A stretch of 64,000 nt of DNA, from contig CAZCCD010000001.1 of NCBI GenBank assembly GCA_964497435.1, positions 87,009 to 151,008 on the forward strand, written 5' to 3'. The position numbers and the translations under genes were made by a program. This DNA is from Candidatus Woesearchaeota archaeon. Lineage in GTDB: Archaea > Nanobdellota > Nanobdellia > Pacearchaeales > GW2011-AR1. Of this stretch, positions 4,309 to 63,835 are shown piece by piece. Under the pieces are notes generated by a model that made no database searches, had not been told where the DNA came from, and saw nothing but the letters and a program-made list of their open reading frames with translations. The stretch's first letter is position 1, and each line of letters opens with the position of its first letter.

Positions 4309-4899
4309 TTATCTTATAAATGTGCATCTATCTCTTCCAGCTTCTTTAGAGTTGTAAAGGGCTTTGTCTGCCCTTGTCTTGAAAGATTTTGTATTATCAT
4401 TTTTCTTAAACTCAGTTAGTCCCATAGAAGCAGTAACCCTGTATTTTTTTAAGACAGAGTCAGAGTGTATTGCATTCTTTAATCTTATGCAGAGTTTCCT
4501 TGCTTTGTTCAATGTTGTCTCAGGCAAGATTACAAAAAATTCTTCTCCTCCAAACCTCGCTGCAATATCTGATTTTCTTATTTGTTTTTTAATGACTTGC
4601 GCTAAAACAAAAAGCAACTCATCAGCCTTTACATGTCCGTATTCGTCATTTATTTTTTTGAAGTGGTCTATATCAACAACCATTAATGACAATTTTTGTT
4701 TCCCTCTTTTTGCTTTCTCAATTTCGATTTCAAGATGAGAATTAAAAAATCTTGCATTATAAAGCCCTGTTTTTTCGTCTTGAGTCGCTATGTCATAGAG
4801 TAAAGAAATACTTTCATTCATGTTTTTGAATAGGTCTTCAATTTTTCTCCTGATTTTTGGCTCTAGAGAAGATATCTTCCTCTTTAACTTTGTGTCCAT
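4309..4899 (-). CDS. stand-alone GGDEF-domain diguanylate cyclase
   Basis: It has the canonical GGDEF-domain motifs: TGLYNARFF (DxLTGLxNRR-like), RFGGEEF (the GG[D/E]EF active site) and KALYNSKEAGRDRC. The stop overlaps the start of the downstream NTase gene. Confidence 0.75.
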   Translation of the reverse strand: MDTKLKRKISSLEPKIRRKIEDLFKNMNESISLLYDIATQDEKTGLYNARFFNSHLEIEIEKAKRGKQKLSLMVVDIDHFKKINDEYGHVKADELLFVLAQVIKKQIRKSDIAARFGGEEFFVILPETTLNKARKLCIRLKNAIHSDSVLKKYRVTASMGLTEFKKNDNTKSFKTRADKALYNSKEAGRDRCTFIR

Positions 4900-4900
4900 A

Positions 4901-4983
4901 ATCGAAACCTCCTGCGGGTTTGTTTCGACATCCTGGCGAAGCAGCTAAAGGCTTTGCCTTTTGTCTCGATGTATCCCGCAACC
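4901..4983 (-). ncRNA. structured RNA-like element, copy 4 of a 4-member family; 5' leader of the GGDEF gene
   Basis: Its reverse complement aligns with the 54433-54557 element (GGTTGCgGGATaCATCGAGACAAAAGGCAAAGCCTTTAGCTGCTTCGCCAggATGTCgAAaCAAACCcGCaGGAGGTTTC). There are compensatory changes: GCGGG/CCCGC here versus GCTGG/CCAGC in the other copies. The GGAGGT at its 3' end lies 7 nt before the GGDEF ATG and is SD-like. A TATA-like 'cttataaatt' lies about 30 nt upstream. Confidence 0.45.
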
Positions 4984-5029
4984 ATCAATACATTAAGAAA
5001 CAACAATTTATAAGTTTTGGTTTTTTGTT

Positions 5030-7231: not shown

Positions 7232-7486
7232 TCATAGGATAACTTTACATTTTGGAATTCTCCTTAGCCTTGCAAGCAATTTTTGTTGCTCCTTGAATCT
7301 TCTTGGATTAATCTCTTGCTTTAATGAAGCATTATAATAAAAGATGCCTACTAATTCTTCTTTACCAATAATCATTTTGATATAATTTTCAAAATCAAAA
7401 TGGTAATCAGAATATTTTGGGTGTAAAGACTTCAAACCATAAACAAAATTAGCACCATCAATATAAACAGAAATTCTTTTTGTCAT
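7232..7486 (-). CDS. NYN/LabA-like domain protein, short (possibly truncated)
   Basis: 'MTKRISVYIDGANFVYGLKSL' is a NYN-domain N-terminal signature. The ORF-track start further upstream reads through a GC-rich hairpin island. The protein is only about 85 aa. Confidence 0.3.
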   Translation of the reverse strand: MTKRISVYIDGANFVYGLKSLHPKYSDYHFDFENYIKMIIGKEELVGIFYYNASLKQEINPRRFKEQQKLLARLRRIPKCKVIL

Positions 7487-7709
7487 ATTAATGAAGTCCG
7501 GTATTACCGAAGTAATAGCCGGGAACACGCTTGCAGGATGTCCGAAGACTTAAGGCATTCCTTGATACCTAATATATTCAAAATACATAATTATTTAAGC
7601 TTTTCGCCTTTCAAAATTTATCTTATTTGTCGAGATGACATTATTTCTGGATAAGACAACATTTTTTCTTCACCACTAACTTTATAAATCCCTTTTATTT
7701 AGATGTGTA

Positions 7710-8753
7710 ATGAAAAGAGTGGTAGTTGTTGGGGTGTTGATTTTAGTCGCTTTTTTAGGAATAATTCTCGCAGAAGACAACAATAGTAATAATAGTTCAA
7801 ACAACGAAACAAATAATACAAATTTAACTCTTACATGTTTTGATTCTGATGGTGGGAAAGACTACGAAGAAAAAGGCAAGTCATGGGCTGGAACAAACTG
7901 CACAGGAGACGACTGCTTAAACATAACAGCCGAAGAAGTTTATGATTCATGCCTAACTGACAAAATCTTAAAAGAAGGTTATTGTGAAGAAGGAGAAAGA
8001 TTTTTCACTAACTACACTTGCCCAGGAGTTTGTGATGACGGAAGATGTAAAGCAAATGAAACAGATGACAATGAAACCGAGGATAACGAAACAGAAATAA
8101 AAGTTTGTTGTAAAATTACAAGAACCGAAGATAATGAAACAGATGTGAAATACAACAGAATTGAACAAAATGATTGTGTCTCCTCAAATGCTACTCAAAT
8201 AACAAGAGAAGTTGTAGCTGATTCTTTCTGCACTAATCAAAGTGGTAGAGAGGCATCCAGGGAAAGACAAAGAATAAAGTTTGAGGCAAGAACAGGTGTT
8301 GAATGCCCTATAGATTGCAGATGTCAGGGAGTCACAATGAAATGTCCTCTTGAAAGTGGTGGAAGAGAAATGACAATTTTTGCAGGAAGTTCAGGCAATA
8401 TAATTATTCAAGTTAAAGGAGTTAATGCCACTACTAATGTGACATTATATAGAGATGGGAATGGAAGCATTTATGGAGTCTTTACAGGAGGAAGAGAAGT
8501 AAGAATCAAATTTATGCCTGATGAAATAAGGATAAAATTAAAAGATAAAATAAAGGCAAAATTAGAAAATGAAGAAATCGAATTAAATGAAGATGGAAAT
8601 TACAAAGTGAAGGTAATGAAAAAAGCAAGGTTGTTTTGGGTTATTCCTGTAGACGAAAATGTAGATGCTGAAATCAATGCTGAAACAGGAACATTTGTAA
8701 AGCTAAAGGGCAGATGGTGGGGCTGGATGGCCAATGATATTGATGAAGATTGA
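7710..8753 (+). CDS. secreted Cys-rich protein, paralog 1 of a tandem triplet with a shared ~150-aa C-terminal domain
   Basis: It has a signal peptide and Asn/Thr-rich and acidic low-complexity segments. The conserved C-terminal block reads ECPIDCRCQGVTMKCPLESGGREMTIFAGSSGNIIIQVKGVN…KARLFWVIPV…GRWWGWMANDID. Confidence 0.5.
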   Translation: MKRVVVVGVLILVAFLGIILAEDNNSNNSSNNETNNTNLTLTCFDSDGGKDYEEKGKSWAGTNCTGDDCLNITAEEVYDSCLTDKILKEGYCEEGERFFTNYTCPGVCDDGRCKANETDDNETEDNETEIKVCCKITRTEDNETDVKYNRIEQNDCVSSNATQITREVVADSFCTNQSGREASRERQRIKFEARTGVECPIDCRCQGVTMKCPLESGGREMTIFAGSSGNIIIQVKGVNATTNVTLYRDGNGSIYGVFTGGREVRIKFMPDEIRIKLKDKIKAKLENEEIELNEDGNYKVKVMKKARLFWVIPVDENVDAEINAETGTFVKLKGRWWGWMANDIDED

Positions 8754-11272: not shown

Positions 11273-11602
11273 ATGCTTGATCCAAACAAAATCAAAAAGA
11301 AGGTGCCAGTTAATGATTTTATAACCTTAATAAGAAAATATGTTCCTGAGAAAATTGAAGATAGCGGTCATGCTTTTAAGAGACTTAGTCAAAGGCAAAG
11401 AGAATTATTTAATATCGAGGAAATATGCAATATTTTGCTTAAAGATAGACCTTTTCTTGTAGGAATTCAAGAAAATAATAATTATGCTGTCTTTTATAAA
11501 CATCAAGGCAAGAATCTAAGAATGATAATAAAATTGGAATTCCAAAAGGTTAAAATAGTCACATTTTATTATGTATTAGAATGGCAAATACCAAAAATAT
11601 GA
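11273..11602 (+). CDS. DUF4258-like small protein (toxin-like member of a DUF4258/DUF2283 pair)
   Basis: It shows the 'HAFKRLSQRQ…I..I' pattern and a C-terminal 'LRMIIKLE…VKIVTFYYV' block, both typical of DUF4258. It overlaps the downstream gene. Confidence 0.4.
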   Translation: MLDPNKIKKKVPVNDFITLIRKYVPEKIEDSGHAFKRLSQRQRELFNIEEICNILLKDRPFLVGIQENNNYAVFYKHQGKNLRMIIKLEFQKVKIVTFYYVLEWQIPKI

Positions 11603-11979
11603 CAGGTAAAGAAAGAACATTAGAAGCAGAAGGAGAAATGGATTATGATTATGTAAATGATATTCTGCTCTTTAAAGTAAAAGATAGAGGGTATGATTTT
11701 TCCATAGAATTTAAAAATATGGTGATAGACATAGATAACGAGCAATTTATTGTTGGAATTCAGATTTTTGATGCCTCAAAATTCCTAAAAATAAGCAAAG
11801 AACACTTAAGAAAAATTACAAAATGGCAATTTAAGGCGAGACTTCAAGAAAATGAATTCAGAATTGATCTATATTATCAAGTAGTAGTCAGGAATAAAAT
11901 TATCAATAATAATATTTATCCAATTATTGTCCAGCAGGATGTAGATTTACCTAGCCCCCAGATGGTTACCACGGTTTAG
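11581..11979 (+). CDS. DUF2283-like small protein (partner of the upstream gene)
   Basis: 'MDYDYVNDILLFKV…FIVGIQIFDAS' matches the DUF2283 pattern (YD.e.D.L.i….ivGIEIl.AS). Confidence 0.4.
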   Translation: MANTKNMTGKERTLEAEGEMDYDYVNDILLFKVKDRGYDFSIEFKNMVIDIDNEQFIVGIQIFDASKFLKISKEHLRKITKWQFKARLQENEFRIDLYYQVVVRNKIINNNIYPIIVQQDVDLPSPQMVTTV

Positions 11980-23600: not shown

Positions 23601-26600
23601 TTATCCATTATCAATGTTTTCCTGGACTTTAACTAGATCAGTGACATAATCTCCTGGTTGGAGTTTTACGACTCTAACACCTTGTGTAGCTCTTCCCATG
23701 ACTCTAATGTTTTTTAAAGAAGTTCTTATGACTATTCCTTTTGCAGTTGTAATAATTATTCCATCAGAATCATTGACAGAGACAGTATTAACAACCTCTC
23801 CTGTCTTGTCAGTGACTTTAAGATTGATTACTCCTTTGCCCGCCCTTGCTGTTTTTCTATAATCATTAACAGCTGTTCTCTTTCCATAACCTTTCTTAGT
23901 TATTGTGAAAACAGCCTCTGTCTTTAAAATTTCAAGGCTAACAACGCTATCATTGTCAAGCTTTATCCCTGTAACACCATAACTAGCTCTTCCCATATCT
24001 CTAACTTCTTCTTCATTAAATCTTATTGCTTTTCCTTTTTTAGTCGCTATCAAAACTTCCTGTCCTTTCTTAACAACTTCAACACCAACAAGCTCATCAG
24101 TATTGTCATTAGGAAGGTTTATTGCCCTTACTCCAGAAGCCCTTGGTTTTGAAAAATGTTTCAAAGATATTTTCTTAACCATTCCTTTTTTAGTAACCAT
24201 AAACAAATAATAATCAAAATTCTTTATAGAAATAACATTTGTTATTGCTTCGTTGCTTAACTTCACCATATTCACTATTGCTTTCCCTTTACTATATCTT
24301 TCAACTTCAGGAACATCATAGGCCTTAAGCCATAAAACCCTGCCTCTTGTTGTGAAAAATATTAAATAATCATGAGTAGAACAGTTTATTAATTGCTTTA
24401 CAAAATCTCCTGTAGCCAAATTGCTTCCTATTACTCCTTTCCCTCCTCTTTTCTGCTCTTTATAAGCTTTAACATCCATTCTCTTACAATATCCCTTATC
24501 AGTTATTGTAACTACTATCTCTTTTTCTTGGACCAAATCTTTCTCAGAAATTTCAGAGATTCTTTGTAAAACCTGGGTCCTTCTTTTATCACCGTATTTG
24601 TTTTTCAGTTCTGATGTTTCTTTAATAATTATCTTCAAAATTTCGTTTATATCTCCAAGAATTTTTTCAAGCTCTGCAATTCTCAATTTTAAATCTTCTG
24701 ACTCTTTCTTCAATTTATCTCTTTCAAGAGTTGTAAGCTGTTGAAGTTTTGTTTCCAAGACAGCTTGAGCCTGTTTTTTAGTCAGCTTGAATTGATTAAC
24801 TAAGGCATCTGAGGCTTCCAAAACCCCTTTGGATTTCTTTATAGTTACTATTACTTCATCTATGTTTTTTAATGCAATCAAAAGACCCTCGACAATTTCC
24901 TGCCTTTCCTTGGCAATTTTCAACTCAAACTTAGTTCTGTTTGTAACCATTAATTTTCTGTGATTGACAAAAGCCTCAAGAACTTCTTTTATATTAAGGA
25001 CTATTGGTTCTTTTCCAACAAGCGCGAGAAAATTAACATTAAAACTATCTTGAAGTCTCGTGTATTTGTAAAGCGCATTCGTAATAAACTTTGGATTAGC
25101 ACCTCTCCTTAATTCAATAACAACTCTTATATCTCCTTTAGAACTCTCGTCCCTTAAATCAGCAATATCTTTTATTTTTTTATTCTGTATAAGATTCGCA
25201 ATTTCTTCAATAAGAAAGCTTTTATTTAACATATAAGGAATCTCTGTTACAACAATTGCTTCTTTTCCTCTTATATTTTCTATAGTTGTCTTTCCTCTTA
25301 CAATTATTCTACCTCTTCCTGTCTTATAAAGCTCAAGCATGTCTCCTTGAATTAAGCCTCCAGTAGGAAAATCAGGCCCTGATATTATCTCACATATTTT
25401 CTCTATTGAAATTTCTGGATTTTTTATATAAGCATTAATTGCGTCGCAAACTTCAATTATGTTATGTGGAGGAATGTTTGTGGCCATGCCAACAGCAATT
25501 CCTGAAGCTCCGTTAAGGAGGAGTGTTGGTAGTTTTCCTGGTAGTAATTCTGGCTCTTTTAAAGAATTGTCAAAATTAGGCAAGAACTTAACAGTTTCTT
25601 TTTCAATATCTTGAAGAAGCTCCATAGTTATAGACATTAATCTTGCTTCAGTGTTATGGCTTATGAATCCATTTGATATAAAAGAATGACAATTACTATC
25701 TACTTTTATAGAATAGACTTTTTGTTTTTCTGTTTTTTCAACAGAAACAATTCTATCAAACAAATATTGGTAAGTTAAAAAATATTCAAATAAAGATTTA
25801 AGGTTAATTCCTGTCCTTTTTAATACAATAGAGGAAATCCTTTGATAATTTTGTCTCATATTAGAATACCTATCAAAATTATGCTTCACAACAAATTCAT
25901 TATCAGAATATTTCGCTAATCTTCTAATAAAATCTGATAAGAATGGAACGAAGTCCTTGGAAGAATATTCCTTTTTATATAATAAAAGAGCAAATTCTAA
26001 TTTTTTATTTTTTCTCTCAGATAAAAATCCTAATTCTTTATAAAATCTTAAAAAATTTCTTTTTCCTCTTATTTGTAGAAGATGTAAATTCTTATATTTA
26101 TCATATCTCTTAAACGAATCTATTCCAAACCTCAAAAGAGATGTTTGCATTATTCTGATTATTTCTTCGCTTGTTGAGCAAAGTCTTATTTCCATGAATT
26201 TTTTTGAGTAACTAATGTTTCCTTCACCTTCGTAAAAAATTCTTATAAAGGTTGAAATAATCTCTTTAGGGGATTTTAAGATTAACAAAGGAATCTTTTT
26301 TTCTTTTGATTTAACAGGCTCTAATCCTATATTTTTAAGGAATTCTATAGTATGCCTGCAATGACACTCAAGTCTATAATATTCTTTTTTTCCGAAAGAA
26401 GAAGGTTTTCTTTTAAATTTATGTAATTTACTATCGGGAAAAACCCTATCCCATCTTGTTTGAAGTTCTGTTATCCAAGGCTCATCAACGTTACAAAATT
26501 CTATTTTATTTTTAGAAATTGAGCCTTCCGAGATAAAAGAAGCCAAAATAAAAGCTACATTTTCATCTAAAAATTCTGGAAGAATTCTTTTTTTTGTTCT

Positions 26601-27347
26601 GTTATTTTTTGCAACAGGATAATATTCTTTTAATTCAATTTTTTGTTTTGGCCAAAAATCATCTTGAAGTCTATCAAGTACAACAACGTCTCCTTCTCTT
26701 ATCTGCTCTAAGGTTTTCCACATAAAAATAGGTCTCTTAAATTCATCAGTAGCTATTGTCAAAACGGGGTGATTATAACTTCCCATCAAAGTATAACCTT
26801 TGTCTGTAGCTATTTTGATTGTTTCGTGTTCACCAGAATCAAACCATTTTGAAACATTATTTACTTTTTTGTCTTTTGAAAGAACTCTTACTTCTTTATC
26901 AGATATTTCATCAATTCTTATTAAGCCTTTGTCTGTTAAAACAAGAGAGTCACCGCTAACACAATACCTGTAAGCAGCAGGAGGATCCCCATCAATTGAT
27001 CCAAAATTTCCCTGACCAAAAACAAGAGGATATCTCAATGAAAAATCCTGCGCCATTCTTACTAAAGCATCGTAAACAGCTGTATCTCCATGCGGATGGA
27101 ATTTTCCAATAACATCGCCAACAACTCTTGCTGATTTTTTTGTTTGAGTCCCTGGTTTTAGGCCCATTTGGTTCATTGCATAAAGAATTCTTCTTTGCAC
27201 AGGCTTTAATCCATCTTCTACAGAAGGTATCGCCCTTGAAACAATTACAGACATGGCATAATCTAGGTAAGCTTTCTTAACTTCTTCAGATATCTCTGTA
27301 TTAAAAATGCCTTTTTCTAATTCTTTCTGATTTAATTCTTCTGCCAT
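23601..27347 (-). CDS. gyrA: DNA gyrase subunit A, interrupted by an intein
   Basis: The N-extein ends …[16 protein letters not shown] (active-site Tyr region) and the C-extein begins TEARLMSI… then continues with the typical GyrA beta-pinwheel C-terminal domain. Removing the insert leaves 811 aa of extein. Confidence 0.9.
25653..26963 (-). mobile_element. GyrA intein (about 437 aa) with LAGLIDADG-type homing-endonuclease region
   Basis: It starts with Cys right after AAYRY ([13 protein letters not shown]) and ends …FISHN, followed by the +1 Thr. An internal LASFISEGS block is LAGLIDADG-like. The insertion site is the classical gyrA site adjacent to the catalytic Tyr. Confidence 0.75.
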
Positions 27348-27361
27348 TTTAAATTCTATTT

Positions 27362-27559
27362 TTAATCATAACCAAAATCTTCATGCGATAAGAAAAGTTC
27401 ATTCTCATCATCTAAATTGATTGTTACTGATTCTTTGTTTTCTTTAAGTTCTCTTAATCTTTCCATCCATTCATCAATCTCCTTGTCACTTAAAGAAACT
27501 TCAGTAACCTCAACTTCAATTTCTTCATTATTTTCTTCCATTTTAATCTCCTTTGTCAA
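27362..27559 (-). CDS. small highly acidic protein
   Basis: The 65-aa ORF is Glu/Asp-rich and overlaps the start of the upstream zinc-ribbon gene by 17 nt. Its function is unknown. Confidence 0.25.
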
Positions 27560-27806
27560 AGATTTTTAAAAATTCTTCTTCTCCAACCTCTTCATTAATA
27601 ATCTCCACTCCTTTCCATTTGCATCTACGACACTCCCATTCCCCCTTACCTCTACCTTCTTCTATTCCAAGGACAACCCCTATTTCAGCACTCTTGCATT
27701 TTGGGCATTTTCTGACTTTGTAAACCTTACTTTTAATTTTAGCTTTTGGTTTTTCCTTTCCTTTCAATATCCAGTCAGGTGTCTGTATTTTAGATTTTTT
27801 TGGCAT
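27543..27806 (-). CDS. small zinc-ribbon protein
   Basis: CPKCKS…CRRCKW forms a CxxC…CxxC ribbon, and the N-terminus is Lys-rich. Confidence 0.35.
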   Translation of the reverse strand: MPKKSKIQTPDWILKGKEKPKAKIKSKVYKVRKCPKCKSAEIGVVLGIEEGRGKGEWECRRCKWKGVEIINEEVGEEEFLKIFDKGD

Positions 27807-27972
27807 GTTTATAATATTACTTTAGTTTGTCTTTATTTTCAAATTGCGGAAATAAATTATTTTGATAATTGCAGTCATTGCATTTATACATTGGAGTTGA
27901 ATCTTTTATATTAGAAGCTATAATAACATTAGTTGACTTGCATTTCTGGCAGGATATTTTTAGTTTCATTTT

Positions 27973-28583: not shown

Positions 28584-31500
28584 TTAAACATCCAAATTCG
28601 CAGTTTGCGCATTGTCTTGTATAAACTCTTTTCTTGCCTGAACATCGTCTCCCATTAACATTGAAAAAACCCTATCAGCCTCAATAGCATCTTCTATATA
28701 TATTTTTTTAATCTTTCTTGTTTTAGGATTCATTGTTGTTTCCCAAAGTTGGTCAAGAGACATTTCTCCAAGCCCTTTAAACCTTGTAACAAGAGCCTTG
28801 CCTAATTTCTCACTGAGTTTTTTTAGTTCTTTGTCAGAATAAACATAATGGTCTTTGTTTTTTCTTACTCTGTACAAAGGAGGCATAGCGACATAAATAT
28901 TCCCCCCTTCAATTAAATGAGGCATAAACCTAAAAAAGAAAGTAAGCAATAAAGTCTTTATATGCTCTCCATCAACATCAGCATCAGTATTATGACAGCA
29001 TAATCCTCCAAAGCCAGCCACAAAATTCTCATCTTCGTCAACTGAAAAGTCATAGACATCACTGCTGCTACATTCCACTTCTTGAATATCTTTAACCTCT
29101 AATCCAACCAAATCTTCCGAGATTGCGACAAATTTTTGATTAATAGAAAAGTGAACACCTTCTATTTTGGCTTGCAATAGATGAGCATTTCTATGGTTCT
29201 CCCATATCCTTTTTAATATCAACAAGTTATTTTTAGAGTTAACGCTAACAGTGTAAACGCGATGTTTAGAAATTATTGAGCTATTGATACTTGGTTCTCT
29301 CTCGCTAATACTAGCCATTACACCAAAAGATTGCAAAAGATACATTAGCTGGTCAGCTAAATCTCTCGATACAGTAGTAAATGAAAGATTATGTTTAGAT
29401 AAGGTCCCGTCTCCTAAAAAGTAAGTTCTCAAAAATTCAAGCTGTAAATCTCTACTTACATTAAAGGCAATTGAAGGCATTTTTTTATTTATTGATGTTG
29501 ATTTCTCCAAATTAAAAATAAATTTCCAGAATAAAGCCACAATTTTATTAACGAGTTTCAGCTCTCCACAAGTTTGATGGTTTTTTGCATAAGAAAGTTT
29601 AGCAGGCAATCCAAATACTTCTTTAAAAGCCATGTTTAGTTCAGGCGCAAGACAAGTATCATTATTACCAATTGCCATTCTTAACCCGTTTCTCAGGGAC
29701 CATGAGCCTTCTGCAAGCCAGAATCCCATAAGTTTCATAAAAGATTTATTAACCTGAATATACCTACCGAGTCCTTGGTGCGCATAATGTTCCGCGCAAA
29801 TAATAATATCTTCACCGATATAAGACAAATCAGATTCTTCTATCTCTGCAAGAGAGATATAATTCTTAACTTTATTCCTGCCAGAATTTTTATATTGCCT
29901 TTCCCATACATTATCCAAATGAGATTTAACAATCTGTACTTGAGATAATACTTGACCTTTATCCATCCCCAAAGTTTTAATATATTCTTCAAACTTTTTA
30001 AGAGTTGGCTTATTCTTTCCCCTTTCCCAATCATAATAAGTACATGGTTGCTTAATACCAACATTTTCACAAATGAATTGCTGAGACAATTTGTTCTCTT
30101 CTCTATGGCTTCTTATTTTTTTTCTAACTTCTTCTGGAATAATTACTCTTTCTCCAACCAAATTATCGTCATCTTTGTACTTTTCCAGTAATTTGTGTTT
30201 TAGTAATTCACTTATAGAATTGCCTCTAATATAGACACTCACCGTAATATTTTTTTTATTTCGCACCAATAATGAAAGGAGGTCTATTTTTTTAGGATAA
30301 TTATAATTATACAAAGGCAAATTCTTTGGTGCAACAATTTTATCACCTTTTTTTATTTCATTTCCTTTTTTAAGCCTAACTTCATTATTCTCATAAACGA
30401 AAACGCTATGGGATGAGGTAACTTTTACACTTCTTCCATACGAAGTCTTAATTTCATATAATGTCTCATCAATAGGATGTTTAATTACTGCTTTAATAGA
30501 CTTAAATTGAGATCTCATAGTTTTTAGGTTAAAGCAAAGCACTTTATAATTTGAAACATTTAATTTATTTTCAATAGCAAAATCGATGAATTCACCAATT
30601 TTTACACACCGAATCTCTCCTTGTGGAGTTTGAATAAAAGTTGTTTCCCGCCCATCCACACTCATAATAATTATTTTTCCATATCTTAATTTATTGATAT
30701 CAAATTGCTCGCCAACACCGGTCCCAATTACTGTAATCATATTTGCAATTTCTTCACTTGATAGTGCTTTTGAAGGATTTGCCTTTTCAATGTTTAATAT
30801 TTTTCCTTTCAAAGGAAGAATTGCTTGAATTTCTTTGCTTCTTGCTTGTTTGGCACTGCCTCCTGCACTCTCTCCTTCAACAAGATACAGTTCTGTGTCT
30901 TCTGTCTTCTTTTTTGAACAGTCTGCGAGTTTTCCAGGCAAACCTCCTAATGAAAAAGCACTCTTTCTCCTTACTAAATCTTTTGCTTTCTTAGCAGCAA
31001 CCCTTGCTTTTGCAGACTCCATGACTTTAAGGGCTATTTTTTTAGCAATTGGTGGATTTTCCTCAAAAAATTCAGAAAGAGCAGAACTAGATATTGAGTC
31101 AACAATTCCCTTAATATCAGAATTTCCAAGTTTTGTTTTTGTTTGCCCCTCAAACTGTGGCTCTGCCATCTTCAAGCTTATAATAGCTGTGAGCCCTTCT
31201 CTTGTATCATCTCCTGTCAAATCAATTTCTTTTCCATTTCCTGTTTTTTTTAAATAATCATTAATCACTCTTGTCAAAGCTGTTTTAAATCCAGAAACAT
31301 GGGTTCCTCCTTCAACAGTGTTAATTGTATTTACAAAACCAAAAATATTTTCTTGATACCCTGTATTGTATTGAACAGCCACTTCTAAAACATTATCTTT
31401 ACTTTCACGTTTAAAATATATTGGTTTATGAAGAGCTTCTTTTGACCTATTTATCCATTTTACGAACTCTATTAAACCTCCGGCTGCAAAAAATTCCTCT

Positions 31501-32147
31501 TTCTTGTCTTTTTTTTCATCGAAAAGATTTATTTTAAGACCCGCATTAAGAAAAACTATTTCTCTAAACCTGGTTTCAAGAACCTTATAATCAAACTCTA
31601 AAACAGAAAAAATATCAGGGTCTGGCCAAAATGTAACTTTTGTCCCTGTTTGCCCATTATCTGTTTTTCCAATAACTTCTATTTTTGTCTTTGCATCTCC
31701 CCTTGAATATTCTTGTCTGTAAATTTTTCCATCTCTTTTTATTTCAACAATCATTTTTTTAGAAAGTGCATTCACAACAGAAACCCCTACGCCATGCAAA
31801 CCTCCAGAAATAACGTAAGATTTCTTGTCAAATTTTCCTCCAGCATGTAACTTAGTCAATGCTATTTGAACAGCAGGCAGTTTGTATTCTTTATGGATAT
31901 CTACTGGAATTCCTCTTCCATCATCCTCGACTGTAACACTCCCATCTTTATTTATAGAAACATCAATTTTCTTACAAAATCCAGCCAAAGCCTCGTCAAC
32001 AGAGTTGTCAACTACCTCATAAACAAGATGATGCAAACCGTCTTTGCCAGTAGAACCAATGTACATAGCGGGCCTTTTTTTCACTCCTTCAAGACCTTCC
32101 AAAACTTTTATTGATTCAGCACTATATTCACTTGCCATTTTACTCAT
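28584..32147 (-). CDS. gyrB: DNA gyrase subunit B, interrupted by an intein
   Basis: The GHKL ATPase (VDNSVDEALAG, GLHGVG), transducer and Toprim (LYLVEGESAGGSAKQ) regions are present. The C-extein reads TDADVDGEHIKTLLLTFFFR… Removing the insert leaves 629 aa of extein. Confidence 0.9.
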   Translation of the reverse strand: MSKMASEYSAESIKVLEGLEGVKKRPAMYIGSTGKDGLHHLVYEVVDNSVDEALAGFCKKIDVSINKDGSVTVEDDGRGIPVDIHKEYKLPAVQIALTKLHAGGKFDKKSYVISGGLHGVGVSVVNALSKKMIVEIKRDGKIYRQEYSRGDAKTKIEVIGKTDNGQTGTKVTFWPDPDIFSVLEFDYKVLETRFREIVFLNAGLKINLFDEKKDKKEEFFAAGGLIEFVKWINRSKEALHKPIYFKRESKDNVLEVAVQYNTGYQENIFGFVNTINTVEGGTHVSGFKTALTRVINDYLKKTGNGKEIDLTGDDTREGLTAIISLKMAEPQFEGQTKTKLGNSDIKGIVDSISSSALSEFFEENPPIAKKIALKVMESAKARVAAKKAKDLVRRKSAFSLGGLPGKLADCSKKKTEDTELYLVEGESAGGSAKQARSKEIQAILPLKGKILNIEKANPSKALSSEEIANMITVIGTGVGEQFDINKLRYGKIIIMSVDGRETTFIQTPQGEIRCVKIGEFIDFAIENKLNVSNYKVLCFNLKTMRSQFKSIKAVIKHPIDETLYEIKTSYGRSVKVTSSHSVFVYENNEVRLKKGNEIKKGDKIVAPKNLPLYNYNYPKKIDLLSLLVRNKKNITVSVYIRGNSISELLKHKLLEKYKDDDNLVGERVIIPEEVRKKIRSHREENKLSQQFICENVGIKQPCTYYDWERGKNKPTLKKFEEYIKTLGMDKGQVLSQVQIVKSHLDNVWERQYKNSGRNKVKNYISLAEIEESDLSYIGEDIIICAEHYAHQGLGRYIQVNKSFMKLMGFWLAEGSWSLRNGLRMAIGNNDTCLAPELNMAFKEVFGLPAKLSYAKNHQTCGELKLVNKIVALFWKFIFNLEKSTSINKKMPSIAFNVSRDLQLEFLRTYFLGDGTLSKHNLSFTTVSRDLADQLMYLLQSFGVMASISEREPSINSSIISKHRVYTVSVNSKNNLLILKRIWENHRNAHLLQAKIEGVHFSINQKFVAISEDLVGLEVKDIQEVECSSSDVYDFSVDEDENFVAGFGGLCCHNTDADVDGEHIKTLLLTFFFRFMPHLIEGGNIYVAMPPLYRVRKNKDHYVYSDKELKKLSEKLGKALVTRFKGLGEMSLDQLWETTMNPKTRKIKKIYIEDAIEADRVFSMLMGDDVQARKEFIQDNAQTANLDV
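28989..30662 (-). mobile_element. GyrB intein (about 558 aa) with LAGLIDADG homing endonuclease
   Basis: It is inserted between …LRYGKIIIM and TDADVDG. It starts with Ser (SVDGRET…) and ends …GGLCCHN, followed by +1 Thr. The LAGLIDADG blocks are LMGFWLAEGSW and LRTYFLGDGTLS. Confidence 0.75.
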
Positions 32148-43611: not shown

Positions 43612-44765
43612 GTTTGTCCTATATTTGAAATTACATTGTTTACATCATCAAAGTTAATAAAGCCGCTACTATCAATATCTAAATGCCCTCTTCCTGTTAA
43701 TGGTTGTCCTTGATTATAAATTACTAAAGCTAGATCAATTATATTAACAATTAAATCGTCATTCACATCTGTTTGCGCACATGTTATTGAACTTAAAGGC
43801 TCTATACATCCAATATAATCTGTAGCGACGACAAAATCATCAAAGTAAACTATGTTTTCTGTTGGGTAAGAAGCAGGTATTCCATTAAACCACCATTCAA
43901 GGTCAACCCTATTTAGTTTTAAACTGGAAATAGTTCTCCAGTTGTATCCTGGCCAAGAAATTATTGGCTGCCCTCCCCATCCAACCCATCCCCCAAATGT
44001 AAAGAATTTTTCTCTTATCCAGCTTCCATTAACAGAGTTGGTTGAATAATTTCCAACTAACTGATTATTAACCCAAAAAACCTGCTCTCCGTCATATTGA
44101 TTTGGAGTGTTTGCTTTTAATCTAGCTTCTATACAATACCACCTGTCTTTTTGTATTATTTCTGTTTGGTAGGGAGTAAATATATTTCCATAAAAACTTG
44201 TTCCAGAACCATCAATATTTTGCCATGAATGCATTTCCTGCCAGTATGTATAAAACATCCAATATCTTGTTCCAGGAGGGTAATCTGAATCCAAACCGCC
44301 ATAATCAACAGGCTCTAAACTGCTCCAGAATGCCTGATTACCTGCGGGCCTTGAGCCAGCACTTCCATCATTAGCAGCTATACCCCCCATATGTGCCGGC
44401 CATCCTGTATCATTCTTAAATCTAATATAATATCTAACATAAACATCATCTTGACCAGAAATATATCTATGAATTGTCCCTCCTTCATTCGCCCCCTTAG
44501 TCGCGGTATCTTTAAGAGAATAATTTCCATGATTTACAACTGAAGAATTCGATTCATAAGAAAAACAGCCAGAGCACTCTCTATACTGCCATCCATGATT
44601 TGTTAAAACAGGATCAGCATGTTCAAAATTATCATGAAATAAAACTCTCGGATCATTTCCAATTCCAATGTCTCCAGGATACAATGAAGAAATTCCTGCT
44701 GAAACATTTTGAGATAAACTTACAACTAACATCAAAGCAAAAATCAACAATAAACCTCTTTTCAT
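43605..44765 (-). CDS. secreted protein with C-terminal dockerin-like module (type A); jelly-roll/lectin-like body
   Basis: Its signal peptide (MKRGLLLIFALMLVVSLSQNVSA) is nearly identical to that of the 46011..47819 product. The C-terminus reads CAQTDVNDDLIVNIIDLALVIYNQGQPLTGRGHLDIDSSGFINFDDV…GQTC. Confidence 0.5.
   Translation of the reverse strand: MKRGLLLIFALMLVVSLSQNVSAGISSLYPGDIGIGNDPRVLFHDNFEHADPVLTNHGWQYRECSGCFSYESNSSVVNHGNYSLKDTATKGANEGGTIHRYISGQDDVYVRYYIRFKNDTGWPAHMGGIAANDGSAGSRPAGNQAFWSSLEPVDYGGLDSDYPPGTRYWMFYTYWQEMHSWQNIDGSGTSFYGNIFTPYQTEIIQKDRWYCIEARLKANTPNQYDGEQVFWVNNQLVGNYSTNSVNGSWIREKFFTFGGWVGWGGQPIISWPGYNWRTISSLKLNRVDLEWWFNGIPASYPTENIVYFDDFVVATDYIGCIEPLSSITCAQTDVNDDLIVNIIDLALVIYNQGQPLTGRGHLDIDSSGFINFDDVNNVISNIGQTC
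44706..44765 (-). repeat. ~60-nt segment identical to 47761-47819 (5' ends/signal-peptide coding of two dockerin genes)
   Basis: 'ttttgagataaa(c/t)ttacaactaacatcaaagcaaaaatcaacaataaacctcttttcat' is present at both loci. It points to a recent duplication of the signal-peptide region (MKRGLLLIFALMLVV.LSQN.SA). Confidence 0.6.
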
Positions 44766-44845
44766 TTTATTTTTTAATTACTAATACCAAGCTCCCCCTT
44801 ATAAGTATTTCTGTAAGTTTTATTCTTTCTCATATTAACACCTTT

Positions 44846-46010: not shown

Positions 46011-47819
46011 TTAACAACTCATTCCAAGCCTATTTCTAACCTCACTAACATCTTGATAATTTATAACAGAGTCTTGACTATTAACATTTAAATGATCTCT
46101 ACCAGTTAATGATTGTCCTTGATTATAAATAACCAATGCTAAATCAATAATATTTATGATTAAATCGTCGTTGACGTCGGCTTGTTGACATGTCACAATT
46201 GGAATTCCTGGATTATACTCATAAGCTCCCATGTCAGGAGCACTTCCATACCATAATTTACAACCAACTTGATTTGGATCTATCGATGCTGAAACATTGC
46301 AGTGATATCCTGGAACTTTAACACCGCCATCGATGGCTGGAGAAGTTAAAGGATTTGGCCTTAAGAAATCTGGAGAAGAGGGGTTTGTTGAGAGGAATTG
46401 GGGATTGAGTTGTTTTGAATTAATTTCTAAGTCTGGCCTAATTGTCCTCAATGTGTTTAGGTCGTAATTAGAAGTACCGTACTGAATCACGCCGGTTTCG
46501 AAATCATCATAATAAATATTATAACCTGATTTTAAGTCGAGAATATCATTTGGGCTCTCTAACAATAAATTTTCCCCTCCTGAAAGACCATAATTGATTA
46601 TCATGTTATTGTATAGGGTAGAATTCAAATTTTGATTACCAGGCCCGCTATTAAAATCAATACCAGTCTCGCTGGGCGTATTTGCTAAAATATTATTAAA
46701 AACCCTAACATTTCTTAGATGAGAATCGCATCTGTCCTCCATATCCCTTAATTGGATATCGGGGCCGTAATATTTCCAACCATTAGGAAAATTACCTGAT
46801 GAATTGTATATTACATTCTCATATACATCATTGTCTCCAGTATATCTAGGAGGAGGACCATAATCTCCCCAACCATCATACAATACAGGACACCAGATAG
46901 CTATATCTACTCCATTCCGAGTGAATTTGTTTCTTCTAATAATGCTATTAGATACCATCTGCTTGAAGAAAATCGCAAAAGTACCAACATCATGAATATA
47001 GTTGTCTTCAATTGTCACATTCTTGGTTCTGTAAATATTTATTCCAGCACAGTTTGCGGCAAGACAAACACCTCCCCCATCAGTTTCCATTATTGGTCCG
47101 TATATTTCGTTTCCCCTAATCACTATGTTATTGGAAGGGTTGTAGTAGATGCCAATGTGGGCGCAGTTCTCCCCTCCCGTACCAAGATTGTCGTGAATGA
47201 CACTATCTTGGACAGTAACCCAATCTGCGAAGAAGAAAACTCCGCCACAAGCTGATTTTGTAAATTCCATGTGATCGACGGTCTGATAAGAAGAAAGGCA
47301 GGCAGCCTGATGCCAATAATCATTATCATATCCCGCTAGCCTTGCATAAGTCGGACCAGTGTGATAACCCATAACTATTGTTCTTGGATAATCTGGATGG
47401 CCTTTAAATATTGTGGGGATTCCCAGAGTTCCAGAATTCTCAGGATGTAATGTGGCGCCACCACCCCAATTACAAGGTTTAGTAGGGACTTCATTATAAG
47501 TTCCTCCTAAAAAAATCACAACATTTCCCGACGCTGCCGTGTTAGCCTTTGCCATTGTGCACCAAGGCTGTGAAAAGGTTCCAGCCCCAGCATCACTACA
47601 ACTCGGGTTTACCTTATTCACATATCTAAATTGTCCACTCGGACATTGACTATAATAATCTCCCCTAAACCAGACACCATTTGCTCCATTATTTGTGTCG
47701 CAGCAATATCCTGTTCCATCAGGATAAGTTTGGTTTCCGCAACTTATGACTGCAGAAATATTTTGAGATAAATTTACAACTAACATCAAAGCAAAAATCA
47801 ACAATAAACCTCTTTTCAT
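46011..47819 (-). CDS. secreted right-handed beta-helix protein (602 aa) with C-terminal dockerin-like module (type A)
   Basis: It has a signal peptide and PbH1-like repeats (VIHDNLGTGGENCAHIGIYYN…IRGNEIYG…IEDNYIHDVG). The C-terminal 100 aa are almost identical to the 1646..3718 product (…WYGSAPDMGAYEYNPGIPIVTCQQADVNDDLIINIIDLALVIYNQGQ…). Confidence 0.6.
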   Translation of the reverse strand: MKRGLLLIFALMLVVNLSQNISAVISCGNQTYPDGTGYCCDTNNGANGVWFRGDYYSQCPSGQFRYVNKVNPSCSDAGAGTFSQPWCTMAKANTAASGNVVIFLGGTYNEVPTKPCNWGGGATLHPENSGTLGIPTIFKGHPDYPRTIVMGYHTGPTYARLAGYDNDYWHQAACLSSYQTVDHMEFTKSACGGVFFFADWVTVQDSVIHDNLGTGGENCAHIGIYYNPSNNIVIRGNEIYGPIMETDGGGVCLAANCAGINIYRTKNVTIEDNYIHDVGTFAIFFKQMVSNSIIRRNKFTRNGVDIAIWCPVLYDGWGDYGPPPRYTGDNDVYENVIYNSSGNFPNGWKYYGPDIQLRDMEDRCDSHLRNVRVFNNILANTPSETGIDFNSGPGNQNLNSTLYNNMIINYGLSGGENLLLESPNDILDLKSGYNIYYDDFETGVIQYGTSNYDLNTLRTIRPDLEINSKQLNPQFLSTNPSSPDFLRPNPLTSPAIDGGVKVPGYHCNVSASIDPNQVGCKLWYGSAPDMGAYEYNPGIPIVTCQQADVNDDLIINIIDLALVIYNQGQSLTGRDHLNVNSQDSVINYQDVSEVRNRLGMSC

Positions 47820-53800: not shown

Positions 53801-54424
53801 TCATCTTAAACTCTTCCTTAATAACCATAAATCTTTTTTAACATTATCGCTGTTCTGGAGATAAGAACCAGTTATGAATAAATTAGCTCCTGCTTCTGCA
53901 GCTTTAGGGGTATTTTCCAGGCCAAGTCCTCCGTCAACCTCTATGTTCAGTTTTGGTTTTAATTTTCTAAGTTGTCTAACTTTTTTTAATGTAAATGGTA
54001 AAAATTTATTCCCATATTTACCAGGATAGACAGTCATAACAAGAACAAGATTTACTTTATTCAAGTATTTTTTAATCTTATTAATTGAAGTTTTAGGATT
54101 AATTGCTATGCCAACTCTTTTTCTTTTGGATTTTATTAGTTTAATTATTTCATCAGGATTTTTCACAGCTTCAATATGGAATATAATTGTGTGAACTCTT
54201 CTAGCATATTTATTTATCCATTTTTCTGGATTAAGCATCATTAAATGAGCTTCATAATTTCCTTTTGGAACTTTAAAATCAAACATTAATGATTTATTCT
54301 TGACAAATTTTCTATCCATGACATCTAGCTGTAAGCGTTTAATATATTTTTTAACTTTTGAAATTCTCTTATTTAACTCTTCCTGATTTTTGGCAATTAT
54401 AGAAGCGATTATTTGCTTTTTCAT
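53801..54424 (-). CDS. rpe: ribulose-phosphate 3-epimerase
   Basis: It has the RPE pattern: LQLDVMDRKFV (DVMDG.FVPN-like), HLMMLNPEKWI, HIEA, VGIAINPKT, LVLVMTVYPGKYG (MsVnPGfgGQ-like), and VDGGLGLEN…GANLFITGSY. The start was taken at MKKQII; the track start at 54478 is probably over-extended. Confidence 0.7.
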   Translation of the reverse strand: MKKQIIASIIAKNQEELNKRISKVKKYIKRLQLDVMDRKFVKNKSLMFDFKVPKGNYEAHLMMLNPEKWINKYARRVHTIIFHIEAVKNPDEIIKLIKSKRKRVGIAINPKTSINKIKKYLNKVNLVLVMTVYPGKYGNKFLPFTLKKVRQLRKLKPKLNIEVDGGLGLENTPKAAEAGANLFITGSYLQNSDNVKKDLWLLRKSLR

Positions 54425-54432
54425 TTTATAAG

Positions 54433-54557
54433 GGGAGAGGTCATAAGAACTTTTCGGTTGCTGGATGCATCGAGACAAAAGGCAAAGCCTTTAGCTGCTT
54501 CGCCAAAATGTCAAAGCAAACCAGCTGGAGGTTTCAATTCCGTAGGTTCTTTTTATT
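54433..54557 (+). ncRNA. structured RNA-like repeated element, copy 1 (125 nt, 100% identical to copy 2)
   Basis: The sequence is GGGAGAGGTCATAAGAACTTTTCGGTTGCTGGATGCATCGAGACAAAAGGCAAAGCCTTTAGCTGCTTCGCCAAAATGTCAAAGCAAACCAGCTGGAGGTTTCAATTCCGTAGGTTCTTTTTATT. There is a TATA-like ttttataa immediately 5' and an oligo-T at the 3' end. It can form a GGC-AAA-GCC hairpin and GCTGG/CCAGC and GCAT/ATGT helices. Confidence 0.45.
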
Positions 54558-54625: not shown

Positions 54626-54826
54626 TTAATGATTAGCAGATTCTATAGCCTTTTTTGTATCTTTTAAAAATATGCGGCTTGCCTTAGGAATTTCTATCCC
54701 TATAACGCTTCCGTCTCTTGATAAGTCTATTACAATTCCATTAGGCAGTTCTACACTCTTCCAATATTCTTTATTTTGGAGCCTTACACCAAGGACATCT
54801 TCTTCTTTATCATACCACTGTTCCAT
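54626..54826 (-). CDS. DUF2283-like small protein
   Basis: 'YDKEEDVLGVRL…GIVIDLSRDGSVIGIEIPKAS' matches the DUF2283 pattern. Confidence 0.4.
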   Translation of the reverse strand: MEQWYDKEEDVLGVRLQNKEYWKSVELPNGIVIDLSRDGSVIGIEIPKASRIFLKDTKKAIESANH

Positions 54827-54827
54827 T

Positions 54828-55061
54828 TTAATCTAACCAATATGCAGTTATTATTCTTTTTATACCTTTTCCTTTTTCTCTATAAACAACTTTTAAAACT
54901 CTTCCTGAAGGAAGAATTCTTGTAATAGCGTTAAAAGCGTTTTTCCAATTTTTATCCTTTAATTTTTCAGAATTGTTAATACATATTTCTATTAAATCAT
55001 CTGTGATTTCAGGGCGATATTTCTTTTGTTTTTCCCAATGAAATGAATATTCAATTTTCAT
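54828..55061 (-). CDS. DUF4258-like small protein (pair with the DUF2283 gene)
   Basis: The C-terminal 'RVLKVVYREKGKGIKRIITAYWLD' is like the DUF4258 'lrVVv….i.VITvY' pattern. It overlaps rpiB by 4 nt. Confidence 0.35.
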   Translation of the reverse strand: MKIEYSFHWEKQKKYRPEITDDLIEICINNSEKLKDKNWKNAFNAITRILPSGRVLKVVYREKGKGIKRIITAYWLD

Positions 55062-55510: not shown

Positions 55511-55785
55511 AGAAGAATAAGTAAAAAAGAGTTTATTAATTTAATTAAATTTGTTAACATGACTAATATTCTAACTAAATGCTATATTTTTGACCCCAAT
55601 TTATTATATATTTATTTTTTAAGATACCTAACTTAAACTACCAATTTAACATAAAAATCTAATTATCAATCATTTCCCATAAATTCCCAGTTACACTACC
55701 TACTTTATATTCATAAGGCAAATTTTATATAGTTACACTACCTTTCAAAATTAATTTAAAAGAGGAATAATCCTTATTGTCTTAA

Positions 55786-55910
55786 GGGAGAGGTCATAAG
55801 AACTTTTCGGTTGCTGGATGCATCGAGACAAAAGGCAAAGCCTTTAGCTGCTTCGCCAAAATGTCAAAGCAAACCAGCTGGAGGTTTCAATTCCGTAGGT
55901 TCTTTTTATT
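55786..55910 (+). ncRNA. structured RNA-like repeated element, copy 2 (identical to copy 1), 17 nt upstream of the 55928 start codon
   Basis: It is 125/125 identical to 54433-54557. It is followed by a short tandem duplication 'ccgtaggttt' and then the ATG at 55928. Confidence 0.45.
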
Positions 55911-55927
55911 CCGTAGGTTTTTAAACA

Positions 55928-62907: not shown

Positions 62908-63022
62908 GGAGATGTCATAAGAAGAACCGTAGACTCTCTAAAGGGAGATGTCATAAGAACTTTTCGGTTGCTGGATGCATAGAAACCCGCTGGAGGTTTC
63001 AATTCCGTAGGTTCTTTTTATT
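62908..63022 (+). ncRNA. structured RNA-like repeated element, copy 3 (degenerate: internal ~47-nt deletion and 5' partial duplication)
   Basis: The ends are shared with copies 1 and 2 (GGGAGAtGTCATAAGAACTTTTCGGTTGCTGGATGCAT … AGAAACCCGCTGGAGGTTTCAATTCCGTAGGTTCTTTTTATT). 'AAACCCGC' carries the copy-4-type variant. An extra partial 5' copy 'ggagatgtcataagaa' sits at 62908-62924. Confidence 0.4.
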
Positions 63023-63319
63023 ATTGCACAATCAAAGTTCCTTTCATATTACTATGTCCTGTTCCACATTGCACACTACAGAAAAATGTGAATTCCCCTT
63101 TTCTATCGGCAATAAATTCAACATTAACTGTTTCTCTAGGATCTAAACTTTCGCTTACTTCAAAACCAGGCAAAGCAAATCCAGTTGTTAGGATTCATCA
63201 AAGATTAAATAGTAGCGTAAATAAAACCAATTTTCAAACCAAATTGAATTTAGTTTGTTATATGCTTTGTATAAATTTCTAAGTAAAAAATCTCTTTTTA
63301 TTAATATAACCATTACTTT

Positions 63320-63835
63320 TTAACTAACAATAATAGTTCCAGTTGAACCGACCTTTAAATGGTCGTGATATCTCCATGTTCCAACTTGATTAAAGGTAAA
63401 ACTATAACTCTCTCCTGGATTGATTCCTCGACAAGCATCAAAAATATTTGCTTCTTCAGAAGTTCCACATTTATCAATATCAGAACCAGGATAGACTTTA
63501 TGAGTTGGATGGACCGCTGAAGCAGGCCAAATGTTTGAAGTGCCAACATTAGTGAAAGTAACTATCTCTCCAGCACTTATAGTGAGTGTGTTTGGACTAA
63601 AACCAGAGGAACTCATTTCAATAATATTCGCTGTTGTGTCTGTTTCACCACCCCCGGTTTGAGTGTTATCAGGCTGATTTTCCTGATCAGAATCAGTTGT
63701 TCCAGGGCTAGATGTTCCAACAGTAGAAACACTTGCTTTTTTTTCTGTGTCAGATCCAGAGCCACTAAAAATTAAAATTGCTAATACAACTGCAAGGATT
63801 ACAACAGTTGTACTAATAACAGCAACTTTTTTCAT
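63320..63835 (-). CDS. secreted cupredoxin-fold-like protein
   Basis: It has a signal peptide and a Thr/Gly/Asp-rich linker. The C-terminal 'GEIVTFTNVG…HPTH…WRYHDHLKVGSTGTIIVS' resembles the plastocyanin/amicyanin topology, but the Cu ligands are not canonical. Confidence 0.3.
   Translation of the reverse strand: MKKVAVISTTVVILAVVLAILIFSGSGSDTEKKASVSTVGTSSPGTTDSDQENQPDNTQTGGGETDTTANIIEMSSSGFSPNTLTISAGEIVTFTNVGTSNIWPASAVHPTHKVYPGSDIDKCGTSEEANIFDACRGINPGESYSFTFNQVGTWRYHDHLKVGSTGTIIVS

Follow-up and report, generated by a model that had tools for sequence, protein, structure and literature searches.

What is the element of about 125 nt that recurs in a 64-kb stretch of a Nanoarchaeota-type genome, and is it maintained as an RNA or copied as DNA? 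The stretch, which was analysed as a whole and is called the window below, encodes aIF2-gamma and an archaeal D-aminoacyl-tRNA deacylase. A preliminary description of its sequence reported four copies with compensatory base changes and proposed either a small-RNA gene family or a cis-regulatory leader, naming fragments of a transposable element with terminal inverted repeats as one outcome that would refute it. The structural observation behind this proposal is right, yet the case for a functional RNA that is conserved is thin. The element is best explained, in our view with middling confidence, as a lineage-specific, modular, hairpin-forming dispersed repeat of the MITE/REP/Correia kind that is probably mobile. 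This reading is favoured by the sharp shared ends, the identical copies, a deletion derivative, partial modules, contig breaks, the empty orthologous sites and an insertion at a start codon.

Copies, modules and boundaries

The copies, named c1 to c4, and the partial units beside them are located as follows.

54433-54557, plus strand: c1, the full modular form (direct reading, pattern search, BLAST and covariance model), with module A at 54433-54450 (GGGAGAGGTCATAAGAAC), a TTTTC linker, core B at 54456-54539 and module C at 54540-54557 (CCGTAGGTTCTTTTTATT); it is antisense to both of its minus-strand neighbours, rpe with its start at 54424 and DUF2283 with its stop at 54626, and occupies the gap between them
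55786-55910, plus strand: c2, with A at 55786-55803, the core at 55809-55892 and C at 55893-55910
55911-55926, plus strand: a second, partial C module (CCGTAGGTTTTTAAAC) in tandem directly after c2 (direct reading)
62908-62942, plus strand: a 35-nt mini-copy preceding c3, consisting of an A-like module, CCGTAG and a C-like tail, without the core
62943-63022, plus strand: c3, with A at 62943-62960, a shortened core at 62966-63004 and C at 63005-63022 (covariance model, 35.8 bits)
4900-4983, minus strand: c4, core B alone (84 nt), separating the GGDEF start codon from its promoter

The four places given in the description were confirmed, with c3 proper confined to 62943-63022 (62908-62942 being the mini-copy) and c4 spanning 4900-4983. 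As had been claimed, c1 and c2 are identical at 125/125 nt (direct reading and a sub-pattern search with at most 3 mismatches), suggesting that the 125-nt composite was copied recently. The ends of c3 (62943-62980 and 62983-63022) each differ from those of c1 at a single position, and its core has lost 45 nt at a junction that joins GCAT to (A)GAAAC and is flanked by the short direct repeats CGAGAC/CGAAAC. Because c3 has lost the whole invariant block described below and its P1 helix is broken (GCTGG against CCCGC), this copy appears to be decaying. The core in c4 matches that of c1 at 75/84 positions (89%, BLAST E 1e-22), and dinucleotide-shuffled sequence, used as a control, gave no match of this kind. 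A covariance model built from c1 and c4 found exactly these four sites in the 64-kb window, all others scoring at most 11 bits.

Modules A and C are imperfect inverted repeats of each other (ATAAGAAC..CGG with CCG..GTTCTT), so that the 125-nt form is a bigger palindrome enclosing the core. The GC content of the core (46-51%) falls within the top 0.4-3% of all 84-nt segments of the window, the mean of which is about 32%, and the GC-rich stretches of the window outside annotated genes are the element copies and two islands encoding small proteins. These islands (around 7496 and 27621) were considered as RNA genes and rejected, as they coincide with short ORFs at 7232-7528, 27543-27806 and 27817-27969, all on the minus strand; one is a 98-aa ORF that resembles, by eye, a fragment of an NYN-type nuclease, and the other two encode small proteins of zinc-ribbon-like type. 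A GC-rich core is as compatible with foreign or selfish DNA as with a structured RNA.

Insertion of c4 at the start codon of a GGDEF gene

The features around c4, all read on the minus strand, are listed below.

4309-4899, minus strand: stand-alone GGDEF (diguanylate cyclase) gene, 196 aa (Pfam GGDEF, 5e-42)
5007-5014, minus strand: TATA octamer (CTTATAAA), the GGDEF gene's own promoter, which aligns with the ortholog boxes TTTAAATA/TTTATTAA
4982-4985, minus strand: upstream ATGG, exactly 21 nt past the TATA octamer, at which a 33-codon upstream ORF now begins
4884-4985, minus strand: the upstream ORF of 33 codons (MVAGYIETKGKAFSCFARMSKQTRRRFRLWTQS, then a stop), which overlaps the GGDEF ATG out of frame
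4908-4912, minus strand: GGAGG contributed by the element, 8 nt ahead of the GGDEF ATG

In the window, a TATA-like octamer (TTTATAAA type, often with an A-rich 5′ flank) ends exactly 21 nt before the ATG of 13 genes and lies 17-27 nt before the ATG of 22 of the 46 genes (e.g., those starting at 7710, 9218, 10454, 11273, 14124 and 19588); Shine–Dalgarno-like sequences are rare. Judged from this TATA spacing, which is the signature of leaderless transcripts, the window genes are largely leaderless. Five orthologous GGDEF loci (L001, L081, L084, L087 and L088) lack the element, and four of the five (L081, L084, L087 and L088) present a TATA box, 21 nt and then ATGGA. The inferred empty allele of the window gene would read CTTATAAA, 21 nt and ATGGACACAAAG. 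At c4, the position 21 nt past the TATA octamer falls on an ATGG, the remaining 82 nt of the insertion come next, and a second ATGG (4899-4896) follows, which repeats the upstream one, serves as the GGDEF start and opens the conserved N-terminus MD(T/K)KL. Thus, c4 is an 86-nt insertion at the start codon, flanked by a duplicated ATGG, or by only AT if the GG is counted as part of the element. The upstream ATGG would mark the ancestral position of the start codon, and the association with GGDEF is, as far as the sequence comparison goes, an accident of insertion and not a conserved arrangement.

The GGDEF protein retains an intact GGEEF motif, and orthologs 60-71% identical to it occur in many MAGs labelled as Nanoarchaeota or archaeon. 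A profile search of contigs with the GGDEF alignment yielded L001 as the only true ortholog among the matches listed, the ARFGGEEF pattern matching generic bacterial genes. The D-aminoacyl-tRNA deacylase gene lies directly upstream of GGDEF in the window and in L001, L081 and L084. L001 (DATJPO010000045.1) is labelled Candidatus Omnitrophota bacterium, and its protein is 59% identical to that of the window; its archaeal deacylase–GGDEF order despite the bacterial label suggests that it is probably mis-binned archaeal DNA. Signalling by c-di-GMP in archaea is almost unexplored according to published commentary (PMC8646023, PMC5847659).

Hairpin structure and substitutions

RNAalifold applied to c1 and c4 returned the same architecture on either strand, i.e., a single long imperfect hairpin with three helices, which is followed in the core by a 14-nt tail containing GGAGG. 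Its parts are the following.

P1, core columns 5-9 with 66-70: holds the sole compensatory pair
P2, core columns 19-22 with 54-57: the other register, 12-16 with 52-56, is the helix of the preliminary description
P3, core columns 26-33 with 42-49: closed by an 8-nt loop
54468-54505, plus strand: 38-nt block (CATCGAGACAAAAGGCAAAGCCTTTAGCTGCTTCGCCA) invariant between c1/c2 and c4, core columns 13-50, with P3 (54481-54488 with 54497-54504) and its loop inside

The double change from GCTGG/CCAGC to GCGGG/CCCGC that had been reported between the copies is real (pair check of c1 vs. c4): two of the nine substitutions between c1 and c4 make up this U-A to G-C exchange in P1, and the remaining seven all fall in unpaired columns. 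When nine random substitutions were placed on c4 with its own minimum-energy fold, the structure was as well preserved as in c1 in about 2% of trials, and the same simulation on antisense folds gave 0.3-4% of trials (P 0.003-0.04), which is modest evidence that the hairpin is maintained. The claim of a conserved secondary structure therefore holds insofar as the hairpin is better kept than random (P ~0.02, sense), but a conserved functional RNA finds little support. The compensatory changes put forward for it come down to one true pair between two distinct sequences, which give a pair-counting covariation tool no power, the observed value being attained in 250 of 500 shuffles. The change from GCAT/ATGT to ACAT/ATGT is also real, but the helix in question competes with a GACA/UGUC pairing. 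The GGC-AAA-GCC hairpin is indeed invariant, though only because the entire 38-nt block is, and it may equally be half of an 8-bp helix (GGCAAAGC/GCUUCGCC).

From the predicted folds and the substitutions, the strand of the hairpin is ambiguous. In P3 the sense strand has an A·C mismatch and the antisense strand a G·U, the opposite of what is found in the alternative P2. Folding was better than that of shuffles on the antisense strand (z −3.8 and −2.9) but not on the sense strand (z −0.9 and −0.4). A hairpin kept equally on both strands is what is expected of a DNA-level palindrome.

Search for relatives and known families

The element had been described as matching no known RNA family, and the Rfam searches agree. 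Rfam 15 at gathering thresholds gave no match in the whole 64-kb window, and its E-value mode (E up to 10, both strands around c1 and c4) returned chance matches of 10-22 bits against thresholds of 40-75. No tRNA or tmRNA gene was found in the window by ARAGORN. A 20-mer of the core had one chance match in JGI metagenomes, inside a bacterial lipoprotein gene; four sub-patterns matched viral contigs without ever extending past the pattern; BLAST against plasmids and phages gave no match; and the peptides of five of the six reading frames of the element, compared with a protein database in search of spurious ORFs over other copies, gave nothing. Further copies in relatives, to which the description had looked for support, did not emerge either, as the core model run over 55 kb from relatives found nothing credible (maximum 15.5 bits, the top match lying inside the deacylase gene). 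However, the metagenome and viral scans required exact words and the nearest sequenced relatives are distant (71% amino-acid identity in GGDEF), so that the absence of homologs elsewhere is weak evidence, including against a function.

Near-identical copies at unrelated loci and empty orthologous GGDEF sites place the element among dispersed repeats in the broad sense. The transposable-element alternative raised in the description gains from the deletion derivative, the partial modules and the assembly breaks, but a strict MITE can be rejected. The ATAAGAAC/GTTCTT(TT)TAT repeat starts 9-10 nt inside the 5′ end, so that the inverted repeats are subterminal, and within the core 14 nt separate P1 from the 3′ end. 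In addition, target-site duplication is absent at c1-c3 and confined to ATGG or AT at c4, and Pfam identified no transposase, integrase or tyrosine recombinase among 40 ORFs of the 64-kb window.

Several other classes were also rejected. Archaeal bulge-helix-bulge introns have two 3-nt bulges on opposite strands with a 4-bp helix between them; the predicted fold of c4 has about 4 nt and 7 nt flanking a 5-7-bp helix, and c1-c3 lie outside genes. A small protein gene is contradicted by the 5′ ATG, which is present only in c4 as the displaced GGDEF start, and by the empty peptide search. A hammerhead-like ribozyme was considered and likewise rejected.

Likeness to known mobile repeats

Small palindromic repeats and MITEs are represented by the Correia elements of Neisseria, the palindromic elements of Rickettsia, REP/BIME and the pneumococcal BOX/RUP. 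Like these, the present element is an imperfect palindrome of 80-150 bp that folds as a long hairpin, has near-identical intergenic copies, internal deletions and a modular build, is found in one lineage only, and inserts near gene starts, rewriting promoters or 5′ leaders. In contrast to them, it has subterminal inverted repeats, no consistent target-site duplication and no cognate transposase seen in the window, and it occurs in a DPANN-type host with four copies in 64 kb.

The palindromes derived from IS200/IS605 and the REP/RAYT systems offer a lead: their hairpins are subterminal and no target is duplicated, as here, and c4 is immediately preceded by TTGAT and has TCGAT at its 3′ end. However, the window yielded no Y1 transposase, the element has no distinct hairpins for a left and a right end, and c1-c3 have no common short target sequence in front of them. 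Integron attC sites, including the Vibrio VCR, carry the boxes R''=RYYYAAC and R'=GTTRRRY. With these, the element shares imperfect palindromes of about 125 nt, AAC...GTT in the outer helix, and direct repeats bracketing a small cassette with a toxin–antitoxin-like pair. An attC identity was nevertheless rejected, judged on boxes and integrase: the outer boxes are TAAGAAC and GTTCTTT, and the window has no integrase. There is also no cassette array, and unlike attC sites one copy sits in a row of housekeeping-type genes and another at a start codon.

Genomic setting of c1-c3 and assembly evidence

Copies c1 and c3 are intergenic in tandem minus-strand gene rows and antisense to their neighbours (rpe and DUF2283 for c1; DoxX and a cupredoxin fragment for c3), and neither has a gene downstream on its own strand. 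The end of c2 is 17 nt from the ATG (55928) of a 1129-aa surface-like ORF with an N-terminal membrane helix. As direct repeats set 1353 bp apart, c1 and c2 bracket rpiB and a toxin–antitoxin-like pair.

This pair, DUF2283/DUF4258 (54626-55061, minus), lies between rpiB and rpe, and another DUF2283 gene is found at 11581-11979 (plus). The rpe gene (53801-54424, minus) has no TATA at the usual −21 and no Shine–Dalgarno sequence, and c1 sits where its promoter or spacer would be; the expression of rpe may thus depend on read-through from rpiB. A protein look-up gave no exact record for the rpe product. In the divergent region between rpiB and c2 with the 1129-aa gene, AGTTACACTACCT occurs twice (55689-55701 and 55731-55743, 42 nt apart) and may be a regulator binding site. 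A 50-aa ORF (63021-63173, minus) has its stop codon directly at the end of c3. Its similarity is limited to the C-terminal portion of a cupredoxin domain, and it is probably a gene fragment beside the intact cupredoxin gene at 63320-63835.

Elsewhere in the window, gyrA and gyrB (23601-27347 and 28584-32147, both minus) contain inteins with LAGLIDADG homing-endonuclease domains, that of gyrB also with HTH_3. Paralogs encoding secreted proteins have promoter and 5′ regions and signal-peptide coding starts that are 96% identical (1599-1654, plus, and 44757-44812, minus; also 44696-44765 and 47750-47819), suggesting that genes of large surface proteins were recently duplicated or underwent gene conversion.

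The junctions of the copies were followed in Logan assemblies of four sequencing runs. Both junctions of c4 (L085, L086, L117 and L118), the right junction of c1 (L119), the left junction of c2 (L120 and L121) and the left side of c3 (L115 and L116, which end inside c3) were reproduced. Every Logan contig of the same organism (L085, L086 and L115-L121) terminates within a copy, as is expected where k-mers are common to the copies, and the recurrence of the junctions in independent four-run assemblies makes mis-assembly of the MAG unlikely.

Alternative explanations

The preferred reading, a probably mobile hairpin repeat, has points against it: the copies number only four, within the 64 kb, and c4 lacks modules A and C, so that no single mobile unit accounts for all of them. 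A functional RNA would likewise be compatible with the 38-nt invariant block, the GC richness and the single compensatory pair. The readings are not fully exclusive, since a mobile hairpin can act as RNA once it is transcribed. Nevertheless, neither a small-RNA family nor a cis-regulatory leader, as originally proposed, is borne out by the five empty orthologs, by the origin of c4 as an insertion and by c1 and c3, downstream of which no own-strand gene lies.

One alternative is that the core is a functional, sense-strand, cis-acting RNA (a riboswitch or a protein- or temperature-responsive leader) that gates the GGAGG and controls GGDEF at c4 and the surface protein at c2, which we consider unlikely. 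The gene pairing of GGDEF with a large surface protein is typical of c-di-GMP riboswitches (RF01051, RF01786), and, like these, the element precedes such genes with a ribosome-binding site directly 3′ (at c4, GGAGG, 8 nt and ATG). However, neither c-di-GMP-I, c-di-GMP-II nor another Rfam model matched even at E up to 10, on which ground a variant of the former two was rejected, and the single hairpin without a multi-helix junction, the orthologous genes without the element and the two of four copies without a downstream gene also set it apart from this class. A conserved leader or riboswitch of any kind is disfavoured by the five element-free GGDEF orthologs, which are leaderless genes, and by the negative search of the relatives' 55 kb; c4 itself is an insertion. 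c2 precedes the membrane/surface ORF by only 17 nt, but a T5 tract stands between c2 and its ATG, and the genes ahead of c1 and c3 are convergent, with their 3′ ends towards the element. Structurally, the core GCCUUU is predicted to pair with either AAAGGC or the GGAGGUUU tail, which would give an on/off alternative, the invariant block and the compensated pair are accompanied by no unpaired-to-paired disruption, and the core forms a GC-rich island; against this, the sense fold is no better than shuffles.

It is similarly improbable that c1-c3 are paralogous genes of trans-acting small RNAs (about 100 nt, either strand), every one of them driven by a promoter of its own and ended by an oligo-T terminator, and that c4 is a related leader. 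The oligo-T ends that had been described are present in c1, c2 and c3 as a closing T5 tract. A TATA-like box had been described ahead of each copy as well; the octamer of c1 (TTTATAAG) stands, ending 23 nt ahead of the core, but it lies just outside the repeat and has no BRE-like A-rich flank, the matches at c2 and c3 are poor, and the box at c4 belongs to GGDEF. A GC-rich composition in an AT-rich genome and a preserved hairpin would suit such an RNA, as would the antisense position of c1 to the spacer in the rpiB-to-rpe row and of c3 upstream of the DoxX promoter, yet the loss of the whole invariant block and the broken P1 in c3, together with the lack of a homolog in any searched collection, argue against it.

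That a piece of promoter or leader DNA was copied passively, by gene conversion or by ordinary segmental duplication, or that MAG mis-assembly accounts for part of the copies, with neither mobility nor function involved, is very unlikely: the arrangement of c1 and c2 as direct repeats flanking rpiB and the toxin–antitoxin-like pair and the tandem partial duplications beside c2 and c3 would be in line with it, but three copies share exactly the same two boundaries, c4 is inserted precisely at a start codon 50 kb off on the other strand, and the reproduced junctions speak against mis-assembly.

The reading that we rate lowest, as highly improbable, is that the 84-nt core is a portable regulatory leader, which would move as DNA and install Shine–Dalgarno-dependent, structure-gated and possibly ligand-gated translation on leaderless genes. 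If true, both the riboswitch-like class and the means by which leaderless genes are rewired would be new, the genes here being those of a c-di-GMP synthase and a large surface protein.

Proposed mechanism and significance

On the favoured reading of a mobile hairpin repeat, core B (82-86 nt), a long imperfect hairpin with a GGAGG tail, would have been copied around this Nanoarchaeota-type genome, sitting in c1-c3 inside a second short inverted-repeat unit (A and C). At c4, the core alone would have inserted right after the ATGG of a leaderless GGDEF gene, duplicating ATGG or only AT. The element presumably moves as DNA, by an enzyme acting in trans or by recombination, and selection may keep the hairpin, as single-stranded DNA or as RNA. 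The GGDEF transcript would now begin with an AUG that opens the 33-codon upstream ORF, leaving the real start dependent on the GGAGG of the element. This change from a leaderless to a leadered gene would probably dampen GGDEF expression or tie it to the upstream ORF. In front of the 1129-aa gene, a TATA box would be expected where c2 has its T-rich end.

To our knowledge, small dispersed hairpin repeats are common in bacteria but have hardly been described in DPANN/Nanoarchaeota. In practice, the repeat fragments assemblies of its source organism, and it is a likely false positive for structured-RNA screens that rely on within-genome copies. For the biology of the organism, c4 would be a clean example, as read from the genome sequence, of how an archaeal gene without a leader acquires one by insertion, together with an upstream ORF and a Shine–Dalgarno site.
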